55,172 bases of DNA, from the IMG/VR virus record IMGVR_UViG_3300044982_000113, positions 1 through 55,172 of that record; one strand, given 5' to 3'. The notes below the pieces were generated by a model. It saw only the letters and a list, made by a program, of their open reading frames with translations, did not search any database and was not told the origin of the DNA. Shown here in pieces: positions 128 to 52,445 of the stretch; position 1 is the first letter of the stretch, and every line of letters starts with the position of its first letter. A program made the position numbers and the translations under genes. The stretch comes from a virus. Its lineage: Duplodnaviria > Caudoviricetes.

Positions 128-244
128 GAGTATGGCTCTGTAACAATGTCGCCGATGACCTTGCCATGATGGTGTGGAGGTGGTATACGTGCATGCGCGT
201 CATATAACTGCCAAAAAGATCTTGGTCGATACCCTTCCGTCACC

Positions 245-273
245 TTGACCCGCGCCCCGTGAGGGCATAGTAT
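245..273 (+). promoter_or_regulatory. sigma70/HrdB-type promoter
   Basis: TTGACC-N17-TAGTAT. Confidence 0.8.
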
Positions 274-333
274 TTACCTATCGACGAAGGGGGAATCGCC
301 CCCGACGCCCGACGATCCGAAGGACTGATCAGA

Positions 334-786
334 ATGACGACCTACACTTCCGCCACCCTCGCCGCTGCCATCATGGGGGACGAGGCGGTCGACACCAACA
401 AGAAGGCTGCTACTCGCATCATCCGGAAGTTCCTGCGCGACGAGCTCGGCGGAGGCAAGGCAGTAGTCGGCAAGGGAAGCCGCTACGCCCTCGACTACAA
501 CAAGCGCGAGATCACCGCCATGGCGAAGCGCTTCAAGGCCTGGGAGGTCGCCCAGGACGAGGCGAAGGCGCTGCGCAAGGAGGCGCTGGAGGCCGCCAAG
601 GCGCCGGCGAAGCCCTCCATCGCCGAACTCGTCAAGCCGACTGGGGTCGACCCGCTGACTCTCTCTGACGACGAGTACGACGATGAGGAGATCGACGAGG
701 ACGACGACAAGCCGGCGACCGGCCCGACCGACGAGGAAATCGCCGCCATGCTCGAGGACGACGACGAGGACATCGAGGAACTCTGA
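334..786 (+). CDS. Early protein with putative winged-HTH-like N-domain and acidic tail
   Basis: RBS GAAGGA; TYTS..LA..I / IRKFLRD / VGKGSRY / FKAW motif shared with 47457..48005; D/E-rich C-terminus. Confidence 0.85.
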   Translation: MTTYTSATLAAAIMGDEAVDTNKKAATRIIRKFLRDELGGGKAVVGKGSRYALDYNKREITAMAKRFKAWEVAQDEAKALRKEALEAAKAPAKPSIAELVKPTGVDPLTLSDDEYDDEEIDEDDDKPATGPTDEEIAAMLEDDDEDIEEL

Positions 787-800
787 TCTGAACCGCTGAT

Positions 801-816
801 GCCCCCTCACGGGGGC
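801..816 (+). terminator. GC hairpin
   Basis: GCCCCC-TCAC-GGGGGC just after the stop at 786. Confidence 0.5.
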
Positions 817-907
817 TCAGTGGTGTGTCTGAGGCATGATCGCCTGCTGAGGTATGCTGGCATAGGCTGGCTCGCGATCAAGCCGCAGGATGGTGTGGAA
901 TGCCTCC

Positions 908-936
908 TTGACTCCGTCGCCATGAGGTGGTAGAAT
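908..936 (+). promoter_or_regulatory. sigma70-type promoter, probably leaderless
   Basis: TTGACT-N17-TAGAAT; ATG 6 nt after the -10. Confidence 0.8.
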
Positions 937-1316: not shown

Positions 1317-1757
1317 ATGACGATCATCAATTCCACCGCCACCACTAAGGTCACCACCCTCCGTAGGCGCCGGCCGACCAAGGTCCACACCATCGTCCTG
1401 ATCATCGCCGGGGTGATCTTGCTGCCCTTCTTCTGCGCCGCGATGGTCGGTTGCGCCGATGCGGCGACCTCCAAGCCGGCGAAGATCGCGACCTACAACG
1501 ACGGTTGGATCGACGCCAGCCAGAACATGATCGACCAGTACAAGATCTCGCGGCAGGGGGTTGACACCTGCCTCGCCGGCGATAAGTCGGGGACGGCACT
1601 GATCCGCTGCATCGATGCCATCCGCAAGCCGAATGCACAGGAACTGCAGGAACTCAAGGAGGCGACCGAGACATCCGGCAAGAATGCCGATTGCCACCTG
1701 GAATGGGATGGCACTGCCAACGACCAGAATGACTGGTACGAGGCAATCTGCCGATAA
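1317..1757 (+). CDS. Membrane-anchored or exported hypothetical protein
   Basis: RBS AAAGGA; basic RRRR stretch then hydrophobic helix; paired Cys in the C-domain. Confidence 0.8.
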   Translation: MTIINSTATTKVTTLRRRRPTKVHTIVLIIAGVILLPFFCAAMVGCADAATSKPAKIATYNDGWIDASQNMIDQYKISRQGVDTCLAGDKSGTALIRCIDAIRKPNAQELQELKEATETSGKNADCHLEWDGTANDQNDWYEAICR

Positions 1758-3156: not shown

Positions 3157-3495
3157 ATGAGTAAACCGCTTGGGCCACCGCCCGCTAAGCGAGTCGCCGC
3201 GAGGCAGCCGTCAGCGACTCACTGCCTGCTGTGCAGGGTTCACAAGGATCTTCATCCGAGGAATCCGCGGAGGCTCACTGCGGCAGGCCCCGGTGTGGAA
3301 CCCCAGGTAACGCCGCCTGAGAGCCCCTCGCCGGCGAACTTTCCGGGGGCTCACTTCTTCATTCCGGGGAACCACACTGCGTTTATCCACCGGATTCCGA
3401 TGGGTACGGCCGCGTATGCTATGAAGCCGGGTGACCTCGTGCTTCAGGTGTTGCCGAGTCATATCGTGGTCTACCGTCCGATGAGGTCGTCGTGA
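3157..3495 (+). CDS. Hypothetical protein (CxxC..H...H motif)
   Basis: RBS GGAGG before ATG 3157; GTGA overlap with the next gene. Confidence 0.65.
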   Translation: MSKPLGPPPAKRVAARQPSATHCLLCRVHKDLHPRNPRRLTAAGPGVEPQVTPPESPSPANFPGAHFFIPGNHTAFIHRIPMGTAAYAMKPGDLVLQVLPSHIVVYRPMRSS

Positions 3496-4013
3496 GAAAG
3501 ACATCTCGAATATCCCAGCCCGTGAGGCGGACATTTATACAGCCTCGAACTGGGAAACCGTCGACCCCGTTGGTGACGTTGGTACTCGGTTTGGCGCTTA
3601 TCGGGGGTGTGGAGTGGGGGGCTTGGGAGGGATTTTCGTTGCCGACGACTAGTTCGACACCGTCGGTCTCGGCCAAGCCGTCATACGGACCGCCGCTGAC
3701 GTATGGGCCCACACACAAGGCATCGGCCAAGGTGGTGCCGAGTTATTCCCAGGGGGTCATGCCGAGTTATAGTGCGCCGGCGAGGCATAAATTGACCGTT
3801 GTGATGACTCCGACGGTGTCCGTGACACCTGTGTATGTGCCGCCGCCCGTACATACGGTGGCGCCTATCCGCCCGTCCCACAGGCATACCCAGCCGGTGC
3901 AGCCTACACCGCCAAGTGCGCCGCCGGTGGGGTCAACTGGACCGAGTGATTCCGCTTCCGCGACTCGCTCAATGAGTCCGTCGCCGTCTAGCTCGGAAGT
4001 TGTCACCAATTAG
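3492..4013 (+). CDS. Membrane-anchored Pro/Ser/Thr-rich protein
   Basis: N-terminal TM helix and low-complexity tail. Confidence 0.65.
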   Translation: MRKTSRISQPVRRTFIQPRTGKPSTPLVTLVLGLALIGGVEWGAWEGFSLPTTSSTPSVSAKPSYGPPLTYGPTHKASAKVVPSYSQGVMPSYSAPARHKLTVVMTPTVSVTPVYVPPPVHTVAPIRPSHRHTQPVQPTPPSAPPVGSTGPSDSASATRSMSPSPSSSEVVTN

Positions 4014-4108
4014 TCCATGGTGACGAATTAGTAACCGTGGGGTTGAGTGCGATCGGTCCTACCCGATAGGGTCAAGCTGAACCGATGACGACCTCATGAG
4101 GGTGTGGG

Positions 4109-4498
4109 ATGGCTGATACGACCCACTGTGTTACTTGTGGACACCACAAGCGTAACCACGGGGAACCTATTGGGTGTGAGCGATGCACCGGCGGGGAGAG
4201 TAATCACCGGTTTATGTCCGCACACCAGGCTCAGGAATGGATGAACAGGCAAATGGCAGAGCCTACTGGTAGGGGTCGTATGGGGGGCAGTCGGAGCTGG
4301 GATGATGACCCTCCGATGGATGACCTGGAGATGGACATCGAGGGTGACGGAGAAGAGACTCAGTTGAGGGTCTATGCTCTTCAGATGGCCATGAAGGGGT
4401 ATGACCTCGTGACTGAGGCTCAGAATGATGCTCCGGGGCCTGAGTGGATCCTCGAGACCGCGCGACGCTACTACCGGTTCCTGAATGGGGAGGACTGA
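4109..4498 (+). CDS. Hypothetical protein with Cys/His N-domain and small helical C-domain
   Basis: CVTCGH..H..CERC; C-terminal motif shared with 16538..17095. Confidence 0.75.
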   Translation: MADTTHCVTCGHHKRNHGEPIGCERCTGGESNHRFMSAHQAQEWMNRQMAEPTGRGRMGGSRSWDDDPPMDDLEMDIEGDGEETQLRVYALQMAMKGYDLVTEAQNDAPGPEWILETARRYYRFLNGED

Positions 4499-4673
4499 GT
4501 TGGATGGTGTGGAACACTACGATAAGGCGAAGGAACTGGTGGACGTGGACTCAGCCAAGGCACTTACTCATGGTGTCTTGGCGTTGGTGGCGTTGTTCGC
4601 AGATAGACCTTGGCAGTATGCGGATGGTCATCCCCTGAAGATGCGCTGGAAGAAAGCTGCAGCTGGGGGATAG
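4485..4673 (+). CDS. Hypothetical protein
   Basis: Overlaps the upstream stop; fits the operon. Confidence 0.6.
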   Translation: MGRTELDGVEHYDKAKELVDVDSAKALTHGVLALVALFADRPWQYADGHPLKMRWKKAAAGG

Positions 4674-4725: not shown

Positions 4726-5718
4726 ATGACCGATGACACAAACACCCACGGCGACGATGACCGCCACCGTGCCCAGGATAACCTGAGGCACGGTGACTGG
4801 TTTTTTGAGCAGGGCGTGGCTGAGGGCCATGCGGCTTTCATGCCCAAGCTCCCATCAGTCCCCATGGCGTACCTGAACCAAGCCTCGCTGTATGCGGCAG
4901 CCGCTGAAAGCTTGGCCTCCATCGAACACCACTGTTACCTGGTTCATCCTGAGATCAGCCACCAGGAGTGGAAGCAGAAGACCTTCCTCGACCGGTACGG
5001 GATTAGTGCCGATGAGCTGGCCTCCGCTGAGGCGAAGAGGGTCAAGGACTTTCCGCCCGGCGGCGAGTCGACCATGGCCCACAGCATGCACCCCACCTGG
5101 ATCACGCCGGAATGCCCGCACTGCAGCGGCACCGGTCACCCGTACAGCTATCGTAACCAGAGGTGCGGCTACTGCATGCCGGTGCCGGATGAGGGTACGG
5201 TGTTCAGCAAGTGCGGTGAGTGCAACCGTAAGATCTGGTGGCAGGACTGCCCGACCGGGGGTTGGTGGATCCACGACAACCATCCCGAGGATCACCACGA
5301 TGCGGTTCCCACACCCGGGTTGCTCGAGCGGGTGGAGACGATCGCCAAATTGAATGCCATCACGACCCATGAGGTCATGAAGTCGATCCAGACGGTTCAG
5401 GCGACAACTCCGATCGACCTGAACCATCTCGCCGGCATCACCGGCAAGCCCAAGTCTAACTCCCGTTACCGCCGTGAGCCAGTACCGGGTATGTTCGACA
5501 AGATCGAGCCCAAGACGGTCCACCTGGTGCCGGTCGGGGTTTCGTCGTTCACCTGTCCGACCCAGTGCTGCCGGGTTCCGATGTGCGACCTCGACCCGGA
5601 CCGCGATCTGGTGACCGAGTATGCTGACAAGGTCACCTGCCCGGACTACCTCACGGGCAAGGACAAGGTCATCGGCCACACCATCCATTCCACCATCGAA
5701 GACCTGAACAAGGACTGA
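4726..5718 (+). CDS. Cys-rich multi-zinc-motif hypothetical protein
   Basis: CPHCSGTG, CGYC, CGEC and H/C clusters. Confidence 0.75.
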   Translation: MTDDTNTHGDDDRHRAQDNLRHGDWFFEQGVAEGHAAFMPKLPSVPMAYLNQASLYAAAAESLASIEHHCYLVHPEISHQEWKQKTFLDRYGISADELASAEAKRVKDFPPGGESTMAHSMHPTWITPECPHCSGTGHPYSYRNQRCGYCMPVPDEGTVFSKCGECNRKIWWQDCPTGGWWIHDNHPEDHHDAVPTPGLLERVETIAKLNAITTHEVMKSIQTVQATTPIDLNHLAGITGKPKSNSRYRREPVPGMFDKIEPKTVHLVPVGVSSFTCPTQCCRVPMCDLDPDRDLVTEYADKVTCPDYLTGKDKVIGHTIHSTIEDLNKD

Positions 5719-5721: not shown

Positions 5722-6186
5722 ATGAGCCCCAAAGAGCTGCCTCCACACGAAGAGGGCAGGTTCGCCTTCGCCGCGGCGGACTGCGACCACCAGTATGGCG
5801 AGTACATGGCCATCGAGTTCAGCGGACCGCTGAGTCGGATGATCAGGGTGCCCCGGTGCTCCGGCTGCGGCATCAACTTGTCCGACGTTGACCAGATCGC
5901 GTCGGCCATAAACCACTGCGAGCCGGACGAGCACATCACCCAGGACATGCTCGACCAGACCGACGGCAAGCTGTACACCACCTGCCTTCGGTGTGGGAGG
6001 AAGTTCTCCGAGGCGCTGGACTTCTGGGTCACTACCGAGGTGGGCACTCGGACCCTCAGCTTCCGTCGGAAGATCGACAGCCCGATCGCCCGGCACTCCG
6101 TCCACGTCAGCAAGTGGGATCTGTTCATCCATCTACTGTTCGGCCACGGTCCGCTCAACGTGTTCGTCACCACCGGGGAGAACTGA
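5722..6186 (+). CDS. Hypothetical protein (CxxC pairs)
   Basis: RBS AAGGA; tight packing. Confidence 0.75.
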   Translation: MSPKELPPHEEGRFAFAAADCDHQYGEYMAIEFSGPLSRMIRVPRCSGCGINLSDVDQIASAINHCEPDEHITQDMLDQTDGKLYTTCLRCGRKFSEALDFWVTTEVGTRTLSFRRKIDSPIARHSVHVSKWDLFIHLLFGHGPLNVFVTTGEN

Positions 6187-6619: not shown

Positions 6620-6943
6620 ATGGCACAGGACCTCTCAACCTTCACAGTGCGACTCGACTTCAATGAAGAGGGCGAAGTGGCGGCAATAACCTACGAAGAC
6701 CTGGTCGGGTGTGGAGAAGAGCACGCCCTCGACATGGGATCCCAGCCCGATATGACTGTTCTGCAGTTGGTCAGGTATCACCTGGATCACTATGACCAGA
6801 ACCACAACGTGAGACCTCGAGTCAGGTGCGGCTATGCCATCCGAACTGAACCTTTCGCTGTCGACCTCGAACCCCGGGTGCTTCGCTGCACCCATGAGGT
6901 TCACTCAGATGAAGTCAAGCATCGCTTCGAGATGGATGCTTAA
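6620..6943 (+). CDS. Hypothetical protein
   Basis: RBS GAGAGG. Confidence 0.7.
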   Translation: MAQDLSTFTVRLDFNEEGEVAAITYEDLVGCGEEHALDMGSQPDMTVLQLVRYHLDHYDQNHNVRPRVRCGYAIRTEPFAVDLEPRVLRCTHEVHSDEVKHRFEMDA

Positions 6944-7817: not shown

Positions 7818-8109
7818 CGACCGGTGCAAGATCTGCGGGGTCGAACGAGTCCCACACCAGATAGCTGAGGATAACCGCGCGACTCATCACAAGTTCTCTG
7901 AGACTGGCAAACTCGAGACACTAGATGATCCTCAGCAGCAGCCCAAGGTTCAACCTCGGATGGTCATTGCCAATGCGGTCGACGTTCAGTTGCGCCAGTT
8001 GCTCATCTCCAAGGGGGTGCTGACGTATGAGGACTTCGCGCCTCCTCGAGACCCTGGAGCTAGCTCTACCGGAGATTCACCTGCTGGGGAACCTTCGAGC
8101 CCCAGTTGA
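7810..8109 (+). CDS. Hypothetical protein
   Basis: Overlapping start; CKIC..H..HH. Confidence 0.65.
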   Translation: MSNDRCKICGVERVPHQIAEDNRATHHKFSETGKLETLDDPQQQPKVQPRMVIANAVDVQLRQLLISKGVLTYEDFAPPRDPGASSTGDSPAGEPSSPS

Positions 8110-8395
8110 GGCATGCGGCATTCTGATGGACTGTCCCCGATGGGTGGGCAGGAAGCAGAGCTACATCATCGAACTTCCGAATCGGTCACTGCACTCGGGC
8201 AGCTATGTGATCGAGCCGGGAGACCTTCGGATGGCCCTGGATGATGTCGGGGATGCTGAGGAAGTGGCCATCTGGCATACTCACCCGAGCGGGCTCATCG
8301 GGCCATCCGAGGGCGACCTCAGACATCGACTGCCCGAGATCCCGATGGTCGTTGTTGCACTAACCGATTGTGGTCCACACCCTACATGGTTCTAA
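8027..8395 (+). CDS. Standalone JAB/MPN+ (Mov34) metallopeptidase
   Basis: EACG...WHTHPSGLIGPSEGD matches the JAMM motif E-HxH-x7-S-x2-D. Confidence 0.85.
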   Translation: MRTSRLLETLELALPEIHLLGNLRAPVEACGILMDCPRWVGRKQSYIIELPNRSLHSGSYVIEPGDLRMALDDVGDAEEVAIWHTHPSGLIGPSEGDLRHRLPEIPMVVVALTDCGPHPTWF

Positions 8396-8741: not shown

Positions 8742-10144
8742 TGGCTCGAACCGCCTCGGGCATTCGCGTCCCCGAAGGTAAGATCTTCCGCAAGGATATC
8801 TACTTCGATGAAACTGACTACCGTCCACACAGGGGTCAGCGAATCGTTCACTATCAAGGCGCGCGCCACCGCGTGCTGGTGAACGGTCGTCGTTGGGGCA
8901 AGACTCTTTGCGGGGCCAAAGAGGCCGAGTGCATGGCGTTCGTCAAGAACTTCCTCGGCGAGTCTCAGATCGGGTGGATCATTGGCCCGGAGTACTCGGA
9001 CTGCGAGAAGGAGTTCCGGGTCATCTACGACTCGCTGAAGAAGTTGGGTGTGGAGGCGCTTTCGAGCAAATTCACCAACAACCCTGACAACGGCAACATG
9101 CATATCAAGACCAAGTGGGGCTTCGACCTCCAGTGCCGGTCTGCTCGGCATCCGGAGAGCCTTGTCGGAGAGGGCCTGGATTTTGTGCTGATCGTCGAGG
9201 GTGGTCGACAGAAGCGCAAGATGTGGGGCGATTACGTACGCCCGGCTCTCTCCGACAAGCGCGGTTGGAGTTTTACCTCGGGGGTTCCTGAGGGTGCTTC
9301 TGACACCTCGCTGCTGTACTCCCTCTACAACCGAGGACAGGATGCCACGAAGCGAACGTGGTGGTCTCAGCAGATGCCGAGTTGGACGAACGACATCGTC
9401 TTTCCCGGGGGTTATGATGACCCCGAGATACAAGAAGCCAGGGATGACCTGACCGATGACGAGTTCAAGCGCCAGTACGGTGCTGAGTTCGTTGAGAACA
9501 TCGGCCGAGTCATGAAGGAGTGGGACAACGACGATCACGTCGGCGACTTCACTTACAATCGCAAGTGGCCACTCTTCGCTGCGGTTGACTTCGGCTACAC
9601 GAACGACTGGGTTTGGCTTTGGATCCAAGTGGATGAGTTCGGCAAGGTATACGTTATCGGGGAGCACAGATTCCGACTTCGCGATACCCACGACATCGCC
9701 ACCGAGGTCTTCAAGAACCATCCACTCACCTCGAAGTTGTTGACGATCTATGTCGACCCCTCTTCGCCTGACGATGCTTCCATCCTTCGTCGGGTGTTGA
9801 ACAAGACCACGAACAACAACACCGGCGGGGAAATCAAGACCCGGCTCTCCTTGATCCGTAGTGCGCTGAAGCTTCGTCCGGTCCATCTACCTGATGGTCA
9901 CCCGGAGAAGGTTGCCGACTTGTTCGTTGACCGGAGCTGCACTGATCTGATCTGGGAGATGAAGGAGGGTTATCGCTGGCCCGAGACTCGCAGCGAGCAG
10001 AAGAGTGACTCCGAGATTCCTCTGGATACCAACAACCACGGTCCTGAGGCACTTGGGCGGTTCTTCAAGGGTTACATGGAGGGTCGACTGCTGACCCGAC
10101 AGTCCAGGCAATCATCCATCGGCAAGAATCGAGGGAGGCGGTAA
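8741..10144 (+). CDS. terL: Terminase large subunit
   Basis: Walker A GRRWGKT, 'GEGLDFVLIVE' Walker B region, nuclease 'VDFG'. Confidence 0.95.
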   Translation: MARTASGIRVPEGKIFRKDIYFDETDYRPHRGQRIVHYQGARHRVLVNGRRWGKTLCGAKEAECMAFVKNFLGESQIGWIIGPEYSDCEKEFRVIYDSLKKLGVEALSSKFTNNPDNGNMHIKTKWGFDLQCRSARHPESLVGEGLDFVLIVEGGRQKRKMWGDYVRPALSDKRGWSFTSGVPEGASDTSLLYSLYNRGQDATKRTWWSQQMPSWTNDIVFPGGYDDPEIQEARDDLTDDEFKRQYGAEFVENIGRVMKEWDNDDHVGDFTYNRKWPLFAAVDFGYTNDWVWLWIQVDEFGKVYVIGEHRFRLRDTHDIATEVFKNHPLTSKLLTIYVDPSSPDDASILRRVLNKTTNNNTGGEIKTRLSLIRSALKLRPVHLPDGHPEKVADLFVDRSCTDLIWEMKEGYRWPETRSEQKSDSEIPLDTNNHGPEALGRFFKGYMEGRLLTRQSRQSSIGKNRGRR

Positions 10145-11871
10145 TGGTAAGTCTCGGTTATGATGAACGCAGCCCGTATGCCAACGCACTCGCTCTCGGT
10201 GGTGTGGATGGTTATCGGTGGATGCCGCCCAAGGACCGGGATCGCTGCAACGCGTACACCAAGTACGATCAGATGTACTGGAATGACTCAACTCAGTACA
10301 TGGTGAGGTTCTTGGAAGATGAGTTCCCCATCTTCGTTCCGAACCCACGTACGGTCGTCGATACGACCGCCTACTACTACCTCAAGGGTCTGTCGATCGC
10401 TCCGAAGCTGGGTAAGCCCAGTCCCATGGCAACGGCGTTGACCCAGTTCCTCGATCGAGAGATGTTCTACTCTCGATTCCACACCGCCAAGCATACTGGG
10501 GTGGCCCGCGGCGACTATGTTCTGCACATGACTGCAGATCCGTCGAAGCCCGCCGGCAAGCGACTCTCGCTCACCCCAGTTCATCCCTGCAAGGTGATTC
10601 TGGACACCGATCCCGATGACTGCACTCGGGTTATGCGTGCTCACCTTGTCGAGCTGGTGGACAACCCGGTAACTAGGGGTGAGAAGGCCGTCAAGGAGTT
10701 GCTGTACTGGTACTCCACTGAGGACGGCGAAGATGGCGACGCCTCGGCTCCGATCGAGAGTTTTTCGCCTGGGTACGATGATGAGGGTGAAGGTAAGCGC
10801 CAAGTCCTCCGTACCGAACGGGTCTGGAGTCTGGAAGCTGATTGGTGGGATGAGGAGGAGCGAATTCTGATCTCGACTCCCATCGCCAAGGAAACGCTTC
10901 CCGACCCGATCGATACCATCCCGGTGTACTGGTTCAGTAACCTGCCTTGGGATGATGGCCCCTATGGATTCTCGGATCTGAGGGGGTTTGAGCGTATCTC
11001 GCAGGGCATCAGTCAGGTAACCTCTGACCAGGGCACTGCGTTGTCGCTCGAGGGTCTTGGAGTCTATGCCACCGATGGCGGTCCGCCGGTCGATGAGCAG
11101 GGCAACAAGACACACTGGAAGATCGGGCCCGGTGAGGTCATGGAACTCGGTACTGCCGGTTCCTACTTCAGACGGGTCGAGGGTGTGGGATCGGTCAAGC
11201 CCAACATGGACCACGTCAACTATCTCGAGTCGAAGATTCGGGAAGCCAGCGGGTTGTCCGACGTTGCGTTGGGCCGGGTTGATGTCCAGACCGCCTCTTC
11301 CGGGATCGCCATGGCGATCAAGTTCATGCCCACGCTTGCCAAGCTCGAAGAGCGGGACAAGTCGGGCATAGACCGTCTCAACCAGATCTTCTATGACTGG
11401 AAGAACTGGAACCAGGCATACGAAGGTCGCACGTTCACGGATGACATCGAAGTCAGCATCGGCGACAAGCTCCCGACCGACCGTACTGGTCGAATCAACG
11501 AGCTCAACAACATGTTCGACCGCGACATCATCCCGGCAACGTACTATCGCTCTGAGATGCAGAAGTTGGGCTACGAATTCCCGCCCGACATCCAGGCACA
11601 GTTGGATGCCGAGCAGGAGAAGAAGGCCACCTACGCTGCGGAGGGCGCACCGTTCGGGTTGCAGGACAACGCGATTGCGGCAGCAACAGGCGCTAAGCCG
11701 CCACCGCCTAACCCCAACCAGCCCGGTCAGGTAACCCAGCCGAAGAATGGCGGGGTGAACAACAGCAACAACAAGAACAAGCCCAATGAGTCGGGTGGCA
11801 CAGAAGCCAACCAGCCAGTGGGTAAGCAGGCACGCGGCGCGAGGCCGCCGGCCAAGGTATCAGCTAGCTAG
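10144..11871 (+). CDS. Portal protein
   Basis: Follows TerL; 575 aa; 'YGFSDL' and 'SGIAMAIKF.P' portal-like motifs. Confidence 0.9.
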   Translation: MVSLGYDERSPYANALALGGVDGYRWMPPKDRDRCNAYTKYDQMYWNDSTQYMVRFLEDEFPIFVPNPRTVVDTTAYYYLKGLSIAPKLGKPSPMATALTQFLDREMFYSRFHTAKHTGVARGDYVLHMTADPSKPAGKRLSLTPVHPCKVILDTDPDDCTRVMRAHLVELVDNPVTRGEKAVKELLYWYSTEDGEDGDASAPIESFSPGYDDEGEGKRQVLRTERVWSLEADWWDEEERILISTPIAKETLPDPIDTIPVYWFSNLPWDDGPYGFSDLRGFERISQGISQVTSDQGTALSLEGLGVYATDGGPPVDEQGNKTHWKIGPGEVMELGTAGSYFRRVEGVGSVKPNMDHVNYLESKIREASGLSDVALGRVDVQTASSGIAMAIKFMPTLAKLEERDKSGIDRLNQIFYDWKNWNQAYEGRTFTDDIEVSIGDKLPTDRTGRINELNNMFDRDIIPATYYRSEMQKLGYEFPPDIQAQLDAEQEKKATYAAEGAPFGLQDNAIAAATGAKPPPPNPNQPGQVTQPKNGGVNNSNNKNKPNESGGTEANQPVGKQARGARPPAKVSAS

Positions 11872-11895: not shown

Positions 11896-12636
11896 ATGAT
11901 GAAGATCGCGGCAAAGTGGTGGCTGGCCAACCTTCCGAGGATCATCGGGTTCGATGGCGAGGGTGAAGGCGGCACTGGCGAGGGTCAGGGCACCGGCGAA
12001 GGGGGCCAGGGCGAAGGCCAGGGCTCTACCGACGGAGAGCAGGGAGAGGGTCAGGGAGACGGGGAAGGCGAGGGTGAGGAATCTGGCAGCGATGGCGCTT
12101 CCAAGGGCCTGAAGACTGCCCTGGATCGCGAGCGCCGCGACCGCAAGATCCTCCAGGCCAAGGTCAAGGCATTCGAGAAGGCCGAGAAGGACCGGGCCGA
12201 TGCCGAAAAGTCCGACGTCGAACGTCTGACCGGGGACAAGACGACCCTGGAAGCCAAGGCCCAGAAGCTCATCACCGGCTACAAGACCCAGGCGATCCGG
12301 GGCGCGGTTCTCGAGGCCGCCACCAAGGCCGGGTTCGCCGACCCGACCGATGCCATGCGCGCCGAGGTGCTCGATGACCTCGGTGTGGAGCAGGACGAGG
12401 AAGACCCCAGCATCGTCGAGATCGACGAGAAGGAACTCGCCCGCCGAGTCAAGCAGTTGCTGAAGGATAAGCCCCACTACAAGGGCGCGGCCACCGGCGA
12501 CCAGAACCAGCAACAGCAGCAGGTCCGCAGTGGCTCCAAGTTCGGCGGGGGTAACGGCAACCAGACCGCTGAGCAGACAGCCGCCCGCCGGGCAGAGCTG
12601 AACCGACGGTACCCGGCTCTCAACGGCCGCGTATAA
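11896..12636 (+). CDS. Capsid scaffolding protein
   Basis: G/E-rich N-terminus, 'ALDRER' coiled coil, 'LLKDKPHY' motif. Confidence 0.85.
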   Translation: MMKIAAKWWLANLPRIIGFDGEGEGGTGEGQGTGEGGQGEGQGSTDGEQGEGQGDGEGEGEESGSDGASKGLKTALDRERRDRKILQAKVKAFEKAEKDRADAEKSDVERLTGDKTTLEAKAQKLITGYKTQAIRGAVLEAATKAGFADPTDAMRAEVLDDLGVEQDEEDPSIVEIDEKELARRVKQLLKDKPHYKGAATGDQNQQQQQVRSGSKFGGGNGNQTAEQTAARRAELNRRYPALNGRV

Positions 12637-13103: not shown

Positions 13104-13147
13104 TCTGATCCACACCCACACCTAACCTGAGAGACAGGAACAACCCG

Positions 13148-14354: not shown

Positions 14355-14394
14355 CGGCGGGTGTGGGATATTCTCTTAGGACCCACACCCGCCG
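14355..14394 (+). terminator. 13-bp inverted repeat after the capsid gene
   Basis: CGGCGGGTGTGGG...CCCACACCCGCCG. Confidence 0.65.
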
Positions 14395-17978: not shown

Positions 17979-18264
17979 TCCCACACCGCGAGGTGCGCCC
18001 GATAGTCCGTAGCCACGATACCTACGGAGAGTTAGTCATTGGGCGACGGACTATGACAATACTTTCTTGATCATTAGAGAAGGAAAGTGATGCCGAGGCA
18101 GCGCCACGCAGAAAGTTGTTGGTCATTGTCATCAAGCATAATCAGCTCACTGATTTTATGCATTGATTGACTAATGACGCAACATACTTCACTGCTGAGT
18201 GGCTTGCTTGCTGAGGCGACGAAAAGGGCAATAGCAACCAACCAACAACTTCCGGGAGACGGCT

Positions 18265-38848: not shown

Positions 38849-39306
38849 GGCCCACGCGTGATCACATCCTGATGGGTTCCGCTTTGCTGTTCGCTCAGCG
38901 AGGAACCTGCAGTCGGGCACAGGTCGGGGCGGTGATCTCGGTCGGTAGCCGTATACTGGTCAGCGGCTACAACGGCGCACCCGCCGGAATGCCGCACTGC
39001 GATCACATCAGTTGCAGTTGCGCCACCAACTTGATTCAACACAGGTACTGCCCCCAGCATAGCCCCTGCACCCGAGCGGTTCATGCCGAGGCCAACGCGC
39101 TGGCTTTCGCCGCTCGTTACGGCGTATGTGTGGAAGGTGCCACGCTCCACACCACGAGGGTGCCCTGTTTGACCTGCGCCGGGTTGATCATCAACTCTGG
39201 TATCCGGCGGGTTGTCTGGGGCGAAGAACATCGAGACATGGCTGGACTGAGCCTCCTTGCCTCTGCCGAGCTAGAGGTGGTAGAATATCGCCATGCCGAT
39301 TTCTAA
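38845..39306 (+). CDS. dCMP deaminase
   Basis: GYNG, HAEANA and PCLTC motifs. Confidence 0.93.
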   Translation: MRPTRDHILMGSALLFAQRGTCSRAQVGAVISVGSRILVSGYNGAPAGMPHCDHISCSCATNLIQHRYCPQHSPCTRAVHAEANALAFAARYGVCVEGATLHTTRVPCLTCAGLIINSGIRRVVWGEEHRDMAGLSLLASAELEVVEYRHADF

Positions 39307-43261: not shown

Positions 43262-43301
43262 CATCCCACACCATCCTGTCAGTGCAACACTAGGGGAGAC
43301 C

Positions 43302-43502
43302 ATGTTCGAGCTCAAGTATAACCTCAAGCGCCGCACCGAAAAGGCCGCCATGGCTTTGGTGTGGAAGCTGCCCAAGAAGTTCGTCATGTGGTGCGCGATC
43401 CGAGTGATCGCCAACGCCACCACGGGGAAGTACAGCAACCAGGTTGTTCCCGACCTGACTGCCATGGAGGCGCTGGCGCGCTGGGAGCCGGCGAATGGCT
43501 GA
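43302..43502 (+). CDS. Hypothetical protein
   Basis: RBS GGGAG. Confidence 0.7.
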   Translation: MFELKYNLKRRTEKAAMALVWKLPKKFVMWCAIRVIANATTGKYSNQVVPDLTAMEALARWEPANG

Positions 43503-44301
43503 GAAAGACTACAGCGCCATCGCCAAACGTCGGATCACTCGACCGGCGGACATCCAGCGGTTGCCGAAGTTCCACATCTACGCCCGACAGAAGAAGGGCA
43601 AGTCGACCTTCAGCTGCTCGGCGGGTGTGGAAAAGACACTCATCCTGGACCCCGAGCACGGCACCGACACCATGAAGACCAAGAACCCCCACGTCTGGCA
43701 CATCGAGAGGTGGGAAGACCTGGATGAGGCTTACAACTTCATCCGATCTGGGGATCACAACTATGAGTGGGTCTCGGTCGACGGTCTCACGAAGCTCTCC
43801 CAAATGTCGCTGAAGTACACCATGAGGTTGCAGGAAGAACGGTCGATCGACCGAATCCCCGGTCAGGTGCAGCAACGCGACTACGGTAAGGCCGGCGAGG
43901 TCATGAAGACCATGCTGACCAACTTCCACAACCTGCCGCAGGGGGTCATCTTCACCTCCCAGGAGCGGATGCAGGACGGTTTCAATGCCGAGGAGGACGA
44001 GGAGGCAGAAGAGACCGCTGCGGAGTTCGTCCCGGATCTTCCCAAGGGGGTTCGTGGCTACGTCAATTCACTGGTTGATGTCATCGGTCGACTTTACGTC
44101 GTCAAGGTGGAGAGCGCCCGGAACCCTGAGAAGATGGTCGTGCAGCGACGGCTTTGGGTTGGGGAGTCGGTGAAGTATGACACCGGCTACCGATCCGACT
44201 TCACCTTGCCCGACATGGTCAAGATGCCCACGATCCCCAAGTTGGTTCAGTTGATTGAGGAGGGACAGCCCGCAACCAAGAAGAAGGTTGCTGCCAAGTA
44301 A
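43495..44301 (+). CDS. Sak4-like AAA ATPase / recombinase
   Basis: 'YARQKKGKST', 'LILDPEHG', 'VSVDGLT', 'DYG'; lies between exonuclease and SSB. Confidence 0.85.
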   Translation: MAEKDYSAIAKRRITRPADIQRLPKFHIYARQKKGKSTFSCSAGVEKTLILDPEHGTDTMKTKNPHVWHIERWEDLDEAYNFIRSGDHNYEWVSVDGLTKLSQMSLKYTMRLQEERSIDRIPGQVQQRDYGKAGEVMKTMLTNFHNLPQGVIFTSQERMQDGFNAEEDEEAEETAAEFVPDLPKGVRGYVNSLVDVIGRLYVVKVESARNPEKMVVQRRLWVGESVKYDTGYRSDFTLPDMVKMPTIPKLVQLIEEGQPATKKKVAAK

Positions 44302-46003: not shown

Positions 46004-46162
46004 CTAGAGTCGACGGTGGATCGAGAAGGTCTTGGTGCCCCGAGAGTTGATCGTCAGGTGTGGACCACCCTTGGGTCCGATGGTCACCGAGGTCGATCGG
46101 GTGTTCAGGTTGACCCTGACCCAGGGAAAGACGGTGATGGAGTCCCGGATGCGAAGTGTCAT
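46004..46162 (-). CDS. DUF4236-like 52-aa protein (not in the ORF track)
   Basis: MTLRIRDSITVFPWVRVNLNTRSTSVTIGPKGG...; TGATG overlap. Confidence 0.65.
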   Translation of the reverse strand: MTLRIRDSITVFPWVRVNLNTRSTSVTIGPKGGPHLTINSRGTKTFSIHRRL

Positions 46163-46881: not shown

Positions 46882-47337
46882 CTAGGGCTGGTAAGCCATT
46901 GTGCGACTGAGTACCCGGTCGGCGGCGTCCTTGGCACTGAAACCGACCTGGTAGTAGACGGTCCAGGATTTTTCGGGTTCGTTGCAGGTGTCGTGCTTGA
47001 CGTCGGCGACCTCGACCATGTACTTGTCCACCTCAGCGAGGTAGTTGTAGAAGTCGTGAGTGTGCTTGTTGGCGAGACGACCCATCTCGTCGATGAGTTC
47101 CTGGTCATCAAAGAGCTGACCGAGAACCTCCACCCGGTTGGTCAGGATCTGCTCCCTGCGGTGCTCCCACACCAGGCGGTCTCGACCGTGGCGGGTGAGG
47201 TGGCGCAGGGAGGAGTTGCAGCCCTGTTCCTTGCAAGAAGCGACGTAGATGATCATCTTCTCGCCGTTGACGGCGCCGGTGGTCATGTAGTACCTCTGAG
47301 TGTGGAAGGTGAGGTCGGGCAGCTGGTGAAGGGTCAT
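46882..47337 (-). CDS. Hypothetical protein
   Basis: RBS GAGGAGG. Confidence 0.75.
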   Translation of the reverse strand: MTLHQLPDLTFHTQRYYMTTGAVNGEKMIIYVASCKEQGCNSSLRHLTRHGRDRLVWEHRREQILTNRVEVLGQLFDDQELIDEMGRLANKHTHDFYNYLAEVDKYMVEVADVKHDTCNEPEKSWTVYYQVGFSAKDAADRVLSRTMAYQP

Positions 47338-48386: not shown

Positions 48387-48496
48387 TTGGTGCCTCCTCG
48401 ATCGTTGGTGGTGTCACCTTATTCTCTCCCGCATGACGGGTCAAGGCTTGTGCCGACACCAATCGACCCCCACCGAAGCAGGGGCCGTGGTGTGGA

Positions 48497-48688: not shown

Positions 48689-48689
48689 A

Positions 48690-49103
48690 CTATACCTCCG
48701 GAGGAGTGTTGATGTTCTCGGGCCAGGTGAAGGGGAAGATGGGCCCCATCTTCCAAGCGGCGGCGATCCGCTGGATGTAGTCCACACCATCCTTGGTGAG
48801 CGAGACGAAGTCGATGCCCGGGCCGATGTCGTCATCGTCGTAGCACATGGTTTCGGAGATGATGATCACGTTGCCGGCGATCTCACCGATGTAGCCGGCA
48901 AGGAGACGGCCCATTTTGTTCGGTCGGCCGGTCTCGAGGGAATTGTCGTCGACCACCGCGACAACATTGTTGCTTCTAGTGATCGGGGTGTTCACCCTTT
49001 CGGGGGACTCAATGCCTGCCTGTTCCATGATCCCCCGACGGGTGTCCGAGGTGATCCAGTCACTCGTGTCGTCCGGCCGGATGAGGAAGGCCAAGAACGT
49101 CAT
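48690..49103 (-). CDS. DUF3846-like hypothetical protein
   Basis: 'VVDDNSL..G.PN..G..L....IAGNVII'; RBS AAGGAG. Confidence 0.6.
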   Translation of the reverse strand: MTFLAFLIRPDDTSDWITSDTRRGIMEQAGIESPERVNTPITRSNNVVAVVDDNSLETGRPNKMGRLLAGYIGEIAGNVIIISETMCYDDDDIGPGIDFVSLTKDGVDYIQRIAAAWKMGPIFPFTWPENINTPPEV

Positions 49104-49162
49104 GGTGAGGCTCCTTGTTGAGGTAGGGCATTGTTGCCCATGCCTCAATCATGGTGCATCCA

Positions 49163-49381
49163 CTATCCGGCGTCAAGGCTACCCGAGCAGCAAGTCGGGG
49201 CTGTTCCGTCGGTCAAAGGATTCCCGCACGCCTCGCAACCGATCTGCGACCCAGTTTGAGACTCCGGCGCTTCGACGACCGAACAAGCCCCGCTGAACGG
49301 GTCCACGATGACGTCCACCGGAGTGATGCTGTACCTGACCCACCGGTGCTTCTTCGTTGTGTGGGGTGCCAAAGAGCTCAT
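49163..49381 (-). CDS. Small Cys-containing protein
   Basis: RBS GAGGA; CEAC. Confidence 0.6.
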   Translation of the reverse strand: MSSLAPHTTKKHRWVRYSITPVDVIVDPFSGACSVVEAPESQTGSQIGCEACGNPLTDGTAPTCCSGSLDAG

Positions 49382-49398
49382 TGCGTATGTTCCTCAGA

Positions 49399-49995
49399 TC
49401 AGCGAGTATTGCGTCGAAGCTTCTTGTTGATGGTTCGGGGGTCGTAGCCGACTGGACGGGCAGAACCCGCCGTACTGCGGACAAACGCTTCACGTGCCCC
49501 ACAGATAGTGCAACGCCGGTCGGAGGGGTCGATGATGTCGGCGATGTCAGTCCCTCGGAGGAGATGGTGAGTGCGAAACCAGCGGAAGACAGTGGGACGA
49601 CGGCAGTAAGTGCACCAGATGTGGGCTTCTTCGGAAGCGGGCACTCGAGGCTTCCATACGACGAGTGCGGTTTTCTGAACGAGCTGGCCGCCGGGCGACT
49701 TGGCCATGACGGGCTTTCCACCCTTAGTGACCTTGACGATTCGAGCCGGAGGAGCGTAGGCGACACCTCGCGACTGGATGGCGCCGTCATGTAGCTTTCC
49801 ACCGCGGAGGTAAGGTCGGAGGAATCGGAATGCATCGGCATACTTCTCGAACTCCTTCTTGGCCCAGGGGCCATCGGCCTCACGCTGAATGATGAGGCGC
49901 CAGGGTTTCTGACCGGCCCTCACCTCCAGCTTCGGAACGGTGAGGAAGAACTCCTTGTATCGAGGATCCGTCAGGAGCTCAGGCAGTGTAAGCAT
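49399..49995 (-). CDS. Hypothetical protein with C-terminal zinc finger
   Basis: WCTYCRRP...CTIC; promoter TTGACA-N18-TAGTAT (50063-50034). Confidence 0.8.
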   Translation of the reverse strand: MLTLPELLTDPRYKEFFLTVPKLEVRAGQKPWRLIIQREADGPWAKKEFEKYADAFRFLRPYLRGGKLHDGAIQSRGVAYAPPARIVKVTKGGKPVMAKSPGGQLVQKTALVVWKPRVPASEEAHIWCTYCRRPTVFRWFRTHHLLRGTDIADIIDPSDRRCTICGAREAFVRSTAGSARPVGYDPRTINKKLRRNTR

Positions 49996-50175
49996 GTATA
50001 TGCCCTCGGTCGGTGGTGCTTGGTGATGCACTGATACTATGCTTGGGCAGTACTGGTTGTCAACGAACCGAGCGCTCTTACTGGCAAGGCCTTTCCCGTG
50101 CAGATGGGAAATGGTTGATTGGTCTGATAGGGTGCTACAGATCGACCAACCAACTACTGACGTGAGGATAGGATT

Positions 50176-50427
50176 GTGGCCATCGTCCGGCCCGAGAAAA
50201 TGCCCGAGGATCTGGATGCCCTGGATGAATGGTTGGTGAAAGCCTACAACCGGGGCAAGGAAGACGGCCGAGACAAGCTTTGGGAGCAGATCAAGGCTTT
50301 CCTGCTCAAGGAGTTCTTGTACTCCAAGGGTCGTAATCGCCGCGCCGACATGGAAAACCCGCGAACCTTCGCAACCAACGAGGTCATGAGGAAGCTCTAC
50401 GCGGCTTACGAGGACGGAAGTCTGTGA
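50176..50427 (+). CDS. Hypothetical protein
   Basis: GTGA overlap with the primase gene. Confidence 0.7.
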   Translation: MAIVRPEKMPEDLDALDEWLVKAYNRGKEDGRDKLWEQIKAFLLKEFLYSKGRNRRADMENPRTFATNEVMRKLYAAYEDGSL

Positions 50428-52445
50428 AACCAGCTCTCGACCACGCCAAAGCGCTTCGTATTATCTCGCGTGCGTGGGGTAAGCAAGACGGATATGCCTT
50501 CTTTCCACACATCGACCGTGAGGAGCAGGTTCGGTCGGGTGAACGGCGGGCGGGGTTTCATGAGAACCGTGCCTTCAAGTGGCCGCAGGAGAAAGCGGCT
50601 ATCCTGAAACACATGGAGGCTCATGAGACCCATGACCTCTATTGGTGTCCCTCACTGTTTGAGGGCACCGAACGCAAGACCGAGCTCGCCATGGATGAAC
50701 ATGCCTTGTGGGCTGACCTCGACGAGGCCAATCCCAAGAAACTGCATGGGGAAACCGACTTCAAGCCTACGATCGCCTGGGAAACCTCACCTGGTCGATA
50801 TCAAGGTCTCTGGGTTGGCAACCCGGTCATGGGCGACTTCCAGGGTGTTAGTTGGCCTGGCAACGAAAACCAACGACTCAGCTATCACCTCGGTGCGGAC
50901 AAAAGCGGTTGGGACACCACCCAATTGCTGCGTTTCCCGGGTTGGCCTAACTACAAGCCCGAGTACAAGAAGCGCGGTCAACCGGCTCCCGGGAAACTCC
51001 TTTGGGACCGCGGGCCGATGTACTCCATCGAGGACTTCAAGGAACTGCCAGCAGTTGCTGGAGCTCTCACTGCGGATAAACTCGGCGATATCCTGACCGA
51101 TGAGATCGACGCGGTCGATATCACCAAGGTCAAAGCTCGGGTTAAGCTGAAGTTGAACCAGCGAGCTCGGGATTTGCTTGGTGCCCGACACGTCGCCGGC
51201 GACCGAAGCGAAAACCTCTGGTATCTCATCCGTTGCCTGGCCGATGCGGGTTGCACGGTCCAGGAGATCGTCGCCATCGCTCGGGCTTCGGTGTGGAATA
51301 AGTTCGATGGTCGCAGCGATGAGATCAAGCGCCTGATCACCGAAGCGATGAAGGCCATCGATCAGCGCGATCCGGAAGTCTCAGAGAAGATTGAGGAAGA
51401 GGAGGCACCCAAGAATCGCCCCTCACGCATCGCCGCTTTTCTCAAGGACGTCAAGCCGCCACGGTGGCTCGTCGAGGGCATTGCCACCGAAGGTTCCGTC
51501 GGGTTTATCGCGGGTCAACCCAAGTCATTCAAATCGTGGTTCGGCCTCGACCTCGCCATTTCAGTTGCCACTGGGGCGATGTTCCTGGACTACTTTCGGG
51601 TTGTGAAGCCTGGACCAGTGCTCTACATCCAAGAAGAAGACTCGGCGATCACGGTCAAAAGCCGGGTACGCAAGGTGTGGAACAGCAAAACCGTTGACCG
51701 GATGCGCCTCCACACCAACGGTCACGATGTCATCTGGGAACCGGGCAACTCCCGAAACTTCGACCCGGACATCGACATTTACCTCCAAGAGGGTTTCATC
51801 GTCAGTGAGGGTCACTGGCAGGAATGGCTCGATGAGACTCTCACGGCAGGTATGGATGGTGTACCATATGTTCTGGTTATCATCGACACGCTGATGAACG
51901 TTGCCGGCGATGTTGAGGAGAATAAGAGCCAGAGCATGACCACCAAGATCTTCAAGCCCGTTAAGTTGCTCTGCCGCAAACACGCCGTCTCACTCCGCTT
52001 TATCCACCATATGGGCAAAGGTGGCGGGGACAATGATACTCGTCGCGGTGGACAGAAAATGCTAGGTGGCACGGCGAACCATGCCTGGGCTGAGGATAGT
52101 CTCTACCTGAGCCGCGGCAAAACCGGCACCATCCATATGGAGTTCGAGTCTAAGTCTGCCCCCGAAAAACAGTACACCATCAGCGGGTTGGATAATCGAG
52201 GCTGGACCCCCTACTTCGAGCCCGAAAAGCCCAAGAAAGAGCCTGTGCCGACTTCTCGCGGACGTAAACCCCGAACTGCCCGCACCAACCCCACGCTGGA
52301 TCTGCTGCAGCAAGGGGGTACCCTCCACACAAACGATATTGCCACCCAACTCAACCGACAGTATGGGCCAACCTATAAGTCGCTCCGAGCTCTCGAGGCT
52401 CAAGGCAAGGCTCACAGGACGGTGAATGGCTGGCAAGCTACCTAA
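50424..52445 (+). CDS. Primase-helicase (RepB/AEP-like primase, helical domain, RepA/AAA_25 helicase, C-terminal wHTH)
   Basis: WADLD, ETSPGRYQ, LRFPG, DRSE, GQPKSFKS, IIDTL and IHH motifs. Confidence 0.92.
   Translation: MKPALDHAKALRIISRAWGKQDGYAFFPHIDREEQVRSGERRAGFHENRAFKWPQEKAAILKHMEAHETHDLYWCPSLFEGTERKTELAMDEHALWADLDEANPKKLHGETDFKPTIAWETSPGRYQGLWVGNPVMGDFQGVSWPGNENQRLSYHLGADKSGWDTTQLLRFPGWPNYKPEYKKRGQPAPGKLLWDRGPMYSIEDFKELPAVAGALTADKLGDILTDEIDAVDITKVKARVKLKLNQRARDLLGARHVAGDRSENLWYLIRCLADAGCTVQEIVAIARASVWNKFDGRSDEIKRLITEAMKAIDQRDPEVSEKIEEEEAPKNRPSRIAAFLKDVKPPRWLVEGIATEGSVGFIAGQPKSFKSWFGLDLAISVATGAMFLDYFRVVKPGPVLYIQEEDSAITVKSRVRKVWNSKTVDRMRLHTNGHDVIWEPGNSRNFDPDIDIYLQEGFIVSEGHWQEWLDETLTAGMDGVPYVLVIIDTLMNVAGDVEENKSQSMTTKIFKPVKLLCRKHAVSLRFIHHMGKGGGDNDTRRGGQKMLGGTANHAWAEDSLYLSRGKTGTIHMEFESKSAPEKQYTISGLDNRGWTPYFEPEKPKKEPVPTSRGRKPRTARTNPTLDLLQQGGTLHTNDIATQLNRQYGPTYKSLRALEAQGKAHRTVNGWQAT

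Follow-up and report, generated by a model that had tools for sequence, protein, structure and literature searches.

A dispersed octamer in an actinobacteriophage genome varies with a RepB'-like primase and may be its recognition sequence

The genome in IMG/VR record IMGVR_UViG_3300044982_000113, a complete actinobacteriophage of 55,172 bp with 127-bp direct terminal repeats and 58% G+C (this whole stretch is what we call the window), is seeded with copies of the octamer GGTGTGGA. The excess over chance is about 14-fold, and related words follow one kind of primase through a broad range of phages. We put the probability at roughly 0.55 that GGTGTGGA and its equivalent form GGTGTGGGA are the preferred recognition or initiation sequence of the phage's own primase-helicase. 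What we observe is the enrichment, the spacing, the lack of a comparable density in host-type genomes and the covariation with the primase domain. From these we infer binding, priming at the sites, the strand that would be read and the base at which a primer would start. The proposed reader is the product of one gene:

50424..52445, + strand, primase-helicase, proposed site reader (673 aa; RepB_primase and AAA_25)

There are 42 exact copies of GGTGTGGA in the window, 30 on the + strand and 12 on the - strand (binomial p = 0.008). The original prediction, made by eye from the letters alone, had listed 29 + and 11 - coordinates; every one of them is an exact match, and two copies had been overlooked (17325 on + and 29996 on -). 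Dinucleotide shuffling yields 3.04 copies on average (standard deviation 1.91, maximum 9), none of 100 shuffles reaches 42, and an order-3 Markov model predicts 3.1. A maximal-order Markov test finds no excess at k = 7-8, because sub-words of GGTGTGGA are themselves enriched; we relied on models of lower order.

The word is sharply defined. Its single-base substitutions occur at background level, with two exceptions: T at position 1 (9 copies, 1.1 expected) and G at position 8 (18 copies). Fifteen of these 18 are the 9-mer GGTGTGGGA, for which 0.6 copies are expected. GGTGTGGGA is an inserted-G form of GGTGTGGA, one base longer, and adds 15 sites. GGTGTGGT and GGTGTGGC are avoided in the window (0 and 1 copies, about 3.5 expected). 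No bases flanking the GGTGTGGA sites are conserved; the base that follows is A 14, C 5, G 17 and T 6 times. The sites of both forms are:

171..178, + strand, GGTGTGGA, exact match
892..899, + strand, GGTGTGGA, exact match
3292..3299, + strand, GGTGTGGA, exact match
3606..3613, + strand, GGTGTGGA, exact match
4506..4513, + strand, GGTGTGGA, exact match
6708..6715, + strand, GGTGTGGA, exact match
9047..9054, + strand, GGTGTGGA, exact match
10201..10208, + strand, GGTGTGGA, exact match
12382..12389, + strand, GGTGTGGA, exact match
14914..14921, + strand, GGTGTGGA, exact match
16335..16342, + strand, GGTGTGGA, exact match
17325..17332, + strand, GGTGTGGA, exact match, overlooked at first
18824..18831, + strand, GGTGTGGA, exact match
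18905..18912, + strand, GGTGTGGA, exact match
22949..22956, + strand, GGTGTGGA, exact match
26022..26029, + strand, GGTGTGGA, exact match
26613..26620, + strand, GGTGTGGA, exact match
27871..27878, + strand, GGTGTGGA, exact match
28941..28948, + strand, GGTGTGGA, exact match
31208..31215, + strand, GGTGTGGA, 3' arm of a 14-bp inverted repeat with the 31189 site
32880..32887, + strand, GGTGTGGA, sole copy running on as TGTGGATAA
34153..34160, + strand, GGTGTGGA, exact match
38393..38400, + strand, GGTGTGGA, exact match
40498..40505, + strand, GGTGTGGA, exact match
43358..43365, + strand, GGTGTGGA, exact match
43624..43631, + strand, GGTGTGGA, exact match
46057..46064, + strand, GGTGTGGA, exact match
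48489..48496, + strand, GGTGTGGA, exact match
51290..51297, + strand, GGTGTGGA, exact match
51674..51681, + strand, GGTGTGGA, exact match
1384..1391, - strand, GGTGTGGA, exact match
8374..8381, - strand, GGTGTGGA, exact match
10478..10485, - strand, GGTGTGGA, exact match
13109..13116, - strand, GGTGTGGA, exact match
26331..26338, - strand, GGTGTGGA, exact match
29996..30003, - strand, GGTGTGGA, exact match, overlooked at first
31189..31196, - strand, GGTGTGGA, 5' arm of a 14-bp inverted repeat with the 31208 site
37049..37056, - strand, GGTGTGGA, exact match
39146..39153, - strand, GGTGTGGA, exact match
40890..40897, - strand, GGTGTGGA, exact match
48781..48788, - strand, GGTGTGGA, exact match
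51709..51716, - strand, GGTGTGGA, exact match
4101..4109, + strand, GGTGTGGGA variant
5990..5998, + strand, GGTGTGGGA variant
11182..11190, + strand, GGTGTGGGA variant
14360..14368, + strand, GGTGTGGGA variant
20617..20625, + strand, GGTGTGGGA variant
29708..29716, + strand, GGTGTGGGA variant
33682..33690, + strand, GGTGTGGGA variant
36390..36398, + strand, GGTGTGGGA variant
37509..37517, + strand, GGTGTGGGA variant
5307..5315, - strand, GGTGTGGGA variant
7850..7858, - strand, GGTGTGGGA variant
17979..17987, - strand, GGTGTGGGA variant
38318..38326, - strand, GGTGTGGGA variant
43264..43272, - strand, GGTGTGGGA variant
47165..47173, - strand, GGTGTGGGA variant

Protein coding does not explain the word. 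The copies lie in all three frames and in both orientations relative to genes, and also outside called genes (63 genes covering 80.6% of the window, from our own crude caller). Within called genes we find 28 of the 42 copies; synonymous-codon shuffling of the genes leaves 6.5 ± 2.3 (maximum 14) and codon-order shuffling 2.3 ± 1.5 (maximum 8, 200 shuffles each). The enrichment thus outlasts the codon-aware null models that the original prediction had called for, and its claim of a DNA-level signal is supported. Because synonymous shuffling, which keeps the protein, retains 6.5 copies versus 2.3 after codon-order shuffling, the data suggest that even amino acid choice leans toward GGTGTGGA.

The sites are also more evenly spaced than expected at random. 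Taking both forms together, the + strand of the window carries 39 sites at a mean spacing of 1.36 kb, with a longest gap between neighbours of 3.1 kb, and the - strand carries 18 sites at a mean spacing of 2.96 kb. On the + strand the coefficient of variation (CV) is 0.60, with p = 0.002 for the octamer alone and 0.0004 when GGTGTGGGA is included. Spacing is likewise more even than random on both strands of Curtobacterium phage Shrew (CV 0.53 and 0.47, p ≤ 0.0006), in Microbacterium phage Triscuit and in the IMG/VR relative G002; in the relatives G004 and G005 it is not. At the same time only 3-6 of 14-25 alignable window sites are found at the same position in relatives. Hence, positions turn over while density is held, and it is held across 45-80% protein identity. 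The pooled figures for 15 genomes are similar, 0.79 sites per kb within called genes and 0.97 elsewhere. No switch of polarity that would mark an internal origin was seen in deciles of these 15 genomes.

Some sites form pairs. Two opposed copies at 31183-31221 form a perfect inverted repeat, its 14-bp arms (GGGCCCTCCACACC ... GGTGTGGAGGGCCC) separated by a loop of 11 bases. The repeat begins 9 bases past the end of the tail-fibre gene (31174) and resembles a terminator hairpin, with no T run after it. Face-to-face pairs about 20-27 bases apart occur at 51674-51716 in the window, at 25585-25624 and 59857-59892 in Shrew and at 38638-38675 in G004; the window pair sits inside the primase-helicase gene. 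Such pairs resemble the paired ssiA/ssiB sites of plasmid RSF1010. In the window, close convergent pairs (51674/51709, and 31189/31208 in the opposite order) are about as numerous as chance allows, our estimate being roughly one for 39 x 18 sites in 55 kb, and we do not take them as origins.

Across genomes, it is the replication module that the word tracks, rather than capsid genes or host. Protein searches place Shrew (capsid 51%, DNA polymerase I (Pol I) 56% identity) and Triscuit (50% and 53%) closest among named phages; megablast returned no named-phage match for the first 25 kb of the window. In all six genomes of this lineage, GGTGTGGA ranks first among overrepresented octamers or at least within the first four (in G002 it is second and in G004 fourth, with GTGTGGGA first there), and GGTGTGGGA accompanies it in every one. 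Shrew carries 48 copies (2.4 expected), Triscuit 30 (1.7) and the three IMG/VR records of the lineage 24-26 (2.4-2.9). Phages that have only capsid genes in common with the window lack the word (Wollypog 2 copies, Predator 4, Madi 0). GGTGTGG is the top 7-mer in phages that share the Pol I-centred replication genes:

KimJongPhill, Streptomyces phage, GGTGTGG 72 copies, 20.8 expected
Survivors, Gordonia phage, GGTGTGG 50 copies, 11.6 expected
FF47, Mycobacterium phage, GGTGTGG 39 copies, 8.8 expected
Muddy, Mycobacterium phage, GGTGTGG 40 copies, 9.3 expected

In Serratia phage Opt-155, whose genes lie in the same order, GTGTGG occurs 62 times (23.5 expected), and in Clostridium phage A2 TGTGG is the top 5-mer (126 versus 54). 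The co-inherited module, common to the phages that carry the word, includes:

39293..41872, + strand, DNA polymerase I, presumed primer extender (PHROG 17, E = 2.9e-143)

Most carriers inherit the module as a unit, so that the case for the primase in particular comes mainly from three more distant phages, Nonagon, CMP1 and Adat. We searched the window proteins against 22 other genomes with tblastn. Of the eight module proteins tested, Nonagon and CMP1 have a detectable counterpart to one part alone, the first 330 residues of the 50424-52445 product; neither annotation nor tblastn revealed a Pol I or ThyA-type gene there, and their primase is fused to a helicase of a different family, DUF3987. 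The top octamer is CCTGTGCT in Nonagon (22 copies, 0.9 expected) and CTGTGCCT in CMP1 (16, 0.6 expected). Arthrobacter phage Adat (primase 23% identical) has CTGTGGG 44 times (6.4 expected), and the Cluster EA phage Kale (26% identical) has GTGTGGCC 40 times (2.7 expected). In all four the TGTG core is kept and the flanks are changed. The RepB_primase profile matches in Kale, Opt-155, A2, Adat (weakly) and CMP1 (weakly); it has no match in KimJongPhill or Nonagon, nor in eight controls without GGTGTGG enrichment, FreddieHg included.

A wider survey agrees with this picture. Scanning IMG/VR with the primase alignment returned 80 loci, of which the 75 of at least 10 kb were analysed. TGTG is part of the top 7-mer at 34 of the 75, and of the top 6- or 7-mer at 39; among 24 chunks of 15 kb from seven phages without a RepB'-like primase, one has a TGTG-type top word. 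We then placed 87 primase domains in a quick maximum-likelihood tree and labelled each with the best of ten panel words at z ≥ 5. In the window's clade (Shimodaira-Hasegawa-like approximate likelihood ratio test support 99) 39 of 39 rows carry GGTGTGG (35) or GTGTGG (4), and in a second clade (99) 9 of 9 carry CTGTGG(G). The labels require 20 changes on the tree, compared to 45.6 when shuffled, and 0 of 200 shuffles is as low. Kinship alone clusters labels, so the tree shows consistency and not independence. Overall, the word covaries with the primase and is absent from genomes without it, the exceptions being KimJongPhill and FreddieHg. Of the four readers offered by the original prediction, comparative evidence favours the primase, given that the word and its variants follow the RepB'-like primase phylogeny and that spacing per strand is more even than random; Chi-like, DnaA-mimicking and stoperator-like sites are unsupported.

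As judged from its sequence, the 50424-52445 product joins a RepB'-like primase to a RepA-like hexameric helicase. The predicted layout is an archaeo-eukaryotic primase of the RepB' type with a helix bundle (about residues 1-320) followed by a RepA-like AAA_25 helicase (334-534). PF16793 RepB_primase matches residues 91-184 with 41.8 bits, above the cut-off of 24.3, and AAA_25 matches residues 334-534 with 99.1 bits; the same domain pair is found in Muddy, Kale, Opt-155 and A2. Searched by sequence, the PDB yields a single match, RSF1010 RepA helicase (1G8Y, E = 0.0024). D98, D100 and E101 in the stretch LWADLDE are invariant in an alignment confined to four relatives; in RepB' the three catalytic aspartates are D77, D78 and D134. 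An AlphaFold2 model of residues 1-330, from four sequences, has a mean predicted local distance difference test score (pLDDT) of 57, and we used its more confident C-terminal part. This helix bundle, at residues 230-315, reaches about 83, and its top six fold matches are all primases: pRN1 3M1M (Z 8.3) and 6GT7 (8.1), RepB' 3H20 (6.8), NrS-1 6A9W (6.8), PriX 5OF3 (6.4) and RepB' 3H25 (6.1).

How could such a protein shape a genome? The helicase would travel along a single-stranded template while the tethered primase domains scan the extruded strand. A primer would be begun at a GTG-containing core where the flanking bases fit, and the phage Pol I would extend it. Because a site of 7-9 bases arises by chance only once per tens of kb, selection would have had to seed the genome regardless of frame, placing a site about every 1.4 kb on the + strand and every 3 kb on the - strand and avoiding long gaps. 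Single sites could turn over as long as density is kept, and the sites on each strand would suffice for discontinuous synthesis. As the primase diverges, the word would change along with it.

Several points weigh against the primase as the reader. First, all the evidence is correlative, and the sites are putative priming sites. Second, bare GTG is frequent, and the need for a 7-9-base site is an assumption. Third, 24 of the 87 tree rows, one clade of 6 included, have no TGTG-type panel word at z ≥ 5. Fourth, labels are shared by descent, and tree clustering overstates independence; the primases of Nonagon, CMP1 and Adat are distant (23-30% identity) and sit on long branches. Fifth, KimJongPhill is enriched for GGTGTGG, yet its primase-helicase is detected by neither BLAST nor the RepB_primase model, the signal being AAA_25 plus one weak motif match. 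Conversely, FreddieHg has a Toprim/MCM-type primase, and its top octamer ATTGTGGG (10 versus 0.2) contains TGTGG. Sixth, the structural model is poor overall, and Z of about 8 may be reached by chance for helical bundles. Finally, the direction of the strand bias is inconsistent among relatives: Muddy (5:1), FF47 (6:1) and Adat keep a top-strand bias even within leftward genes, in Kale the word follows the sense strand, Survivors has no bias and in KimJongPhill the bottom strand is favoured. Because Muddy, FF47 and Adat keep their bias in leftward genes, a transcription-linked reading is ruled out as a general rule, although Kale does fit it.

One could go a step further and argue that the word is a private replication address. 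The primase-helicase would prime efficiently only on DNA with its 7-9-base word, which would focus the replisome on phage DNA; the phage genome carries the word about 10-20 times more densely than host-type genomes. Helix bundle and word would co-evolve as a family-wide "primase code" (GGTGTGG(G)A, GGGTGTGG, GTGTGGCC, CTGTGGG, CCTGTGCT), raising a replication barrier between co-infecting phages and constraining codon and even amino acid choice genome-wide, in the therapeutic phage Muddy too. We regard this extension as a speculation with perhaps some chance of being right.

The strongest rival is that another protein inherited with the module reads the word, above all as a private Chi-like signal:

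33482-34963, SNF2 helicase, rival reader
42194-43261, PD-(D/E)XK Cas4-like exonuclease, rival reader
43495-44301, RecA-like ATPase, rival reader

The Cas4-like nuclease and the RecA-like ATPase would read the word as a Chi, or else it would be a signal for the SNF2 helicase. Known Chi sequences are GT-rich, as is the word, and its statistics (overrepresented, position-independent, partly polar) match Chi-type signals. These genes also accompany the word in the window, Shrew, Triscuit, the IMG/VR relatives, KimJongPhill, Survivors, FF47, Muddy and Kale. However, Nonagon and CMP1 keep a TGTG-type word without homologues of these proteins detectable by tblastn, while Madi and FreddieHg, whose annotations include a Cas4-family exonuclease and a RecA-like recombinase but whose primases are of other kinds, show no GGTGTGG enrichment. 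To our knowledge no sequence-specific reader is known among the Cas4-like, RecA-like and SNF2 families. On balance, we find this account unlikely.

It is still less probable that the sites bind a small phage protein, be it a helix-turn-helix (HTH), stoperator-like, nucleoid-organising or packaging factor. Sites are spread evenly over the genome, and Triscuit, KimJongPhill and Survivors have annotated MerR-like HTH genes. Against this, none of the window's small DNA-binding genes has a homologue in every carrier, and the word is as dense in coding DNA, in both orientations. The original prediction had suggested stoperator-like sites for the HTH paralogues, which we find unsupported: stoperators occupy short intergenic gaps and are oriented with transcription, whereas two thirds of the octamers (28/42) are inside genes, in every frame and in either orientation, and the phages carrying the word have no HTH gene in common. 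Packaging fits no better, as the structural and packaging genes of the carriers are unrelated and, among those tested, the capsids of Muddy, Kale and Opt-155 were not detected with that of the window.

A role in DNA modification or defence, with the word as target or as escape, seems similarly improbable. One could imagine thymidine modification by the ThyA-like, kinase-like and phrog_13667 products, since the word has two T in GT context and the cluster at 35071-39306, with its divergent ThyA and 380-aa protein, is conserved. Yet Nonagon, CMP1 and Adat have TGTG-type words without detectable homologues of ThyA or phrog_13667, the two genes looked for, and a modification target offers no reason for enrichment or even spacing.

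We also doubt, a little more strongly, that the word is aimed at a host factor, as a Chi for RecBCD/AdnAB, a DnaA-box mimic or another orienting signal. As stand-ins for the host we used five host-type genomes, chosen via a 16S primer scan (three Microbacterium, one Glaciihabitans metagenome-assembled genome and one Arthrobacter). In these, GGTGTGGA is found 117-387 times per 3.2-5.1 Mb, or once per 13-28 kb, compared to once per 1.3 kb in the window. This is a mild excess of 1.4-2.2 times over the reversed control word, and a host Chi, overrepresented and present about once per few kb of chromosome, is not what we see in these five stand-ins. Unrelated Microbacterium phages have few copies (Appa 0, Hendrix 8 in 98 kb, ValentiniPuff 7, Ajin 1, FreddieHg 2), even though four of the five infect M. 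foliorum, the same host as Triscuit. Hence, the Chi-like sites of the original prediction find no support as targets of a host nuclease. TGTGGA is part of the DnaA box, and the full TGTGGATAA noted earlier at 32882 is indeed present. It is a single instance: 1 of 42 copies continues as the nine-base box TGTGGA(T/C)AA, and in relatives TGTGG is followed by C or G in place of A. Moreover, the same core is enriched in phages of both Actinobacteria and Serratia.

That the word is a functionless by-product of mutation bias or shared ancestry is very improbable: related genomes do share composition, and nothing beyond this speaks for it, against a 14-fold excess of one exact word with single-base neighbours at background, even spacing, turnover at constant density and the drop to 6.5 copies after synonymous and 2.3 after codon-order shuffling.

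Genome-wide private words may be common among actinobacteriophages. Phages without a RepB'-like primase have octamers of their own: TGGCGGGT in Predator (NC_011039.1; 27 versus 1.9), CTGGCGGA in Madi (MZ171372.1, with a primase/polymerase-type primase; 33 versus 5.4), CGGATCCG in ValentiniPuff (MH825712.1; 48 versus 9.8) and ATTGTGGG in FreddieHg (MT639643.1; 10 versus 0.2). In G004, CGCCGGCG (70 copies, 17.7 expected) rivals the primase-linked word. At the IMG/VR primase loci L269-L274, L258 and L260 the top words are palindromes, GGATCC (20-30 versus 2-7) and CTCGAG (88-100 versus 28). Overrepresented palindromes are unusual, restriction sites tending to be avoided.

The remainder of the genome, as seen in PHROG and Pfam scans, is that of a siphovirus, with terminase, portal, major capsid, tape-measure and tail-fibre genes all on the + strand and a replication block from about 33.4 to 53.6 kb, 3' of the structural genes. 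The lysin (27906-28682), a possible clue to the host, has no relative among the genome contigs searched. The nucleotide-metabolism cluster at 35071-39306 encodes a P-loop kinase-like protein (annotated as thymidylate kinase in relatives), a dUTPase_2/MazG-like protein, the unknown 380-aa phrog_13667 protein, the divergent ThyA (a partial match, Pfam 34.7 bits) and a dCMP deaminase; Gordonia, Mycobacterium, Streptomyces and Serratia phages have them in the same order. The cluster might supply dTTP to a genome whose G+C is about 10% below that of its hosts; alternatively, it might modify thymidine. Triscuit is a lytic singleton with 58.3% G+C and a long terminal repeat, and its G+C is well under the values of Microbacterium hosts, 69.3% being given for M. 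aerolatum (PMC7302621). A leftward gene of the window (31630-32343) recurs in Shrew, Triscuit, KimJongPhill and the IMG/VR relatives. The sole sizeable leftward block, 45830-50031, has eight small open reading frames directly upstream of the primase-helicase gene; none of those scanned has a family match.

If the primase does read the word, then the genomes of a whole phage family are shaped by the sequence taste of their own primase, in phages of Microbacterium, Curtobacterium, Gordonia, Streptomyces, Mycobacterium (Muddy, FF47), Arthrobacter, Clavibacter and Serratia. Primase specificity could then be read cheaply and directly from sequence alone, and the family would offer a natural series of co-evolved primase/site pairs for studying how helix bundles of archaeo-eukaryotic primases recognise templates. 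It would also call for caution in the synthetic recoding of such phages, because synonymous changes could delete priming sites. Sequence-specific primases of the RepB'-like family are already known, as are primase recognition words in general. So far, two plasmids have provided the site-specific members of this family, each having just one or two sites. In the literature, searches by literal string and by keyword (the latter at the level of listings) turned up no dispersed, genome-wide, co-evolving primase word of 7-9 bases in a broad phage family.

Chi- and KOPS-type oligomers are exact, overrepresented, indifferent to frame and strand-polar, with positions that turn over, and the word of the window is alike in this. 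They are read by host enzymes and enriched in host chromosomes; the window word instead follows a phage gene. The primase of T7 gp4 recognises a core GTC in preferred pentamers. Like the window protein, gp4 is a fused primase-helicase, and it scans a single-stranded template, as is proposed for the window protein. It differs in having a DnaG/Toprim-type primase with a zinc-binding domain, and its core is short and frequent by chance, so no enrichment is needed in T7. Flanking context reportedly modulates the strength of T7 sites (PMC6136900).

Short repeated words along genomes also occur in Microbacterium phages and as Cluster A stoperators (PMC7302621). In the sections of that paper used here, the Microbacterium repeats are 12-30 bp long and present in 5-12 copies in short intergenic gaps by gene starts; no repeated motif is reported for Triscuit or Cluster EA, and the legend of the supplementary repeat figure lists only clusters EC, EF, EG and EI. 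Its main text contains GTGTGG and CCACAC 0 times.

The closest parallels are plasmid primases. The archaeal pRN1 primase makes primers only on templates bearing GTG and requires its helix-bundle domain (PMC2965215). The best fold matches of our helix bundle are to this protein, ORF904 (3M1M, 6GT7), and every word that we found contains GTG, the word of the window holding two overlapping copies. ORF904 belongs to an archaeal replicon, only the trinucleotide is known to be needed, and genome-wide enrichment is not described in the passages on which we draw. RSF1010 (IncQ) RepB'/RepA has a primase of the same family (RepB_primase) and a RepA-like helicase. RepB' is strictly site-specific, needs its ssi sites and starts the primer at T32 within a GTG triplet (PMC8567376). 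RSF1010 has two structured 40-nt hairpin sites (ssiA/ssiB), one per strand, at a single origin. The window, unlike RSF1010, has about 57 short sites dispersed over both strands with unconserved flanks, and its primase and helicase are one polypeptide.

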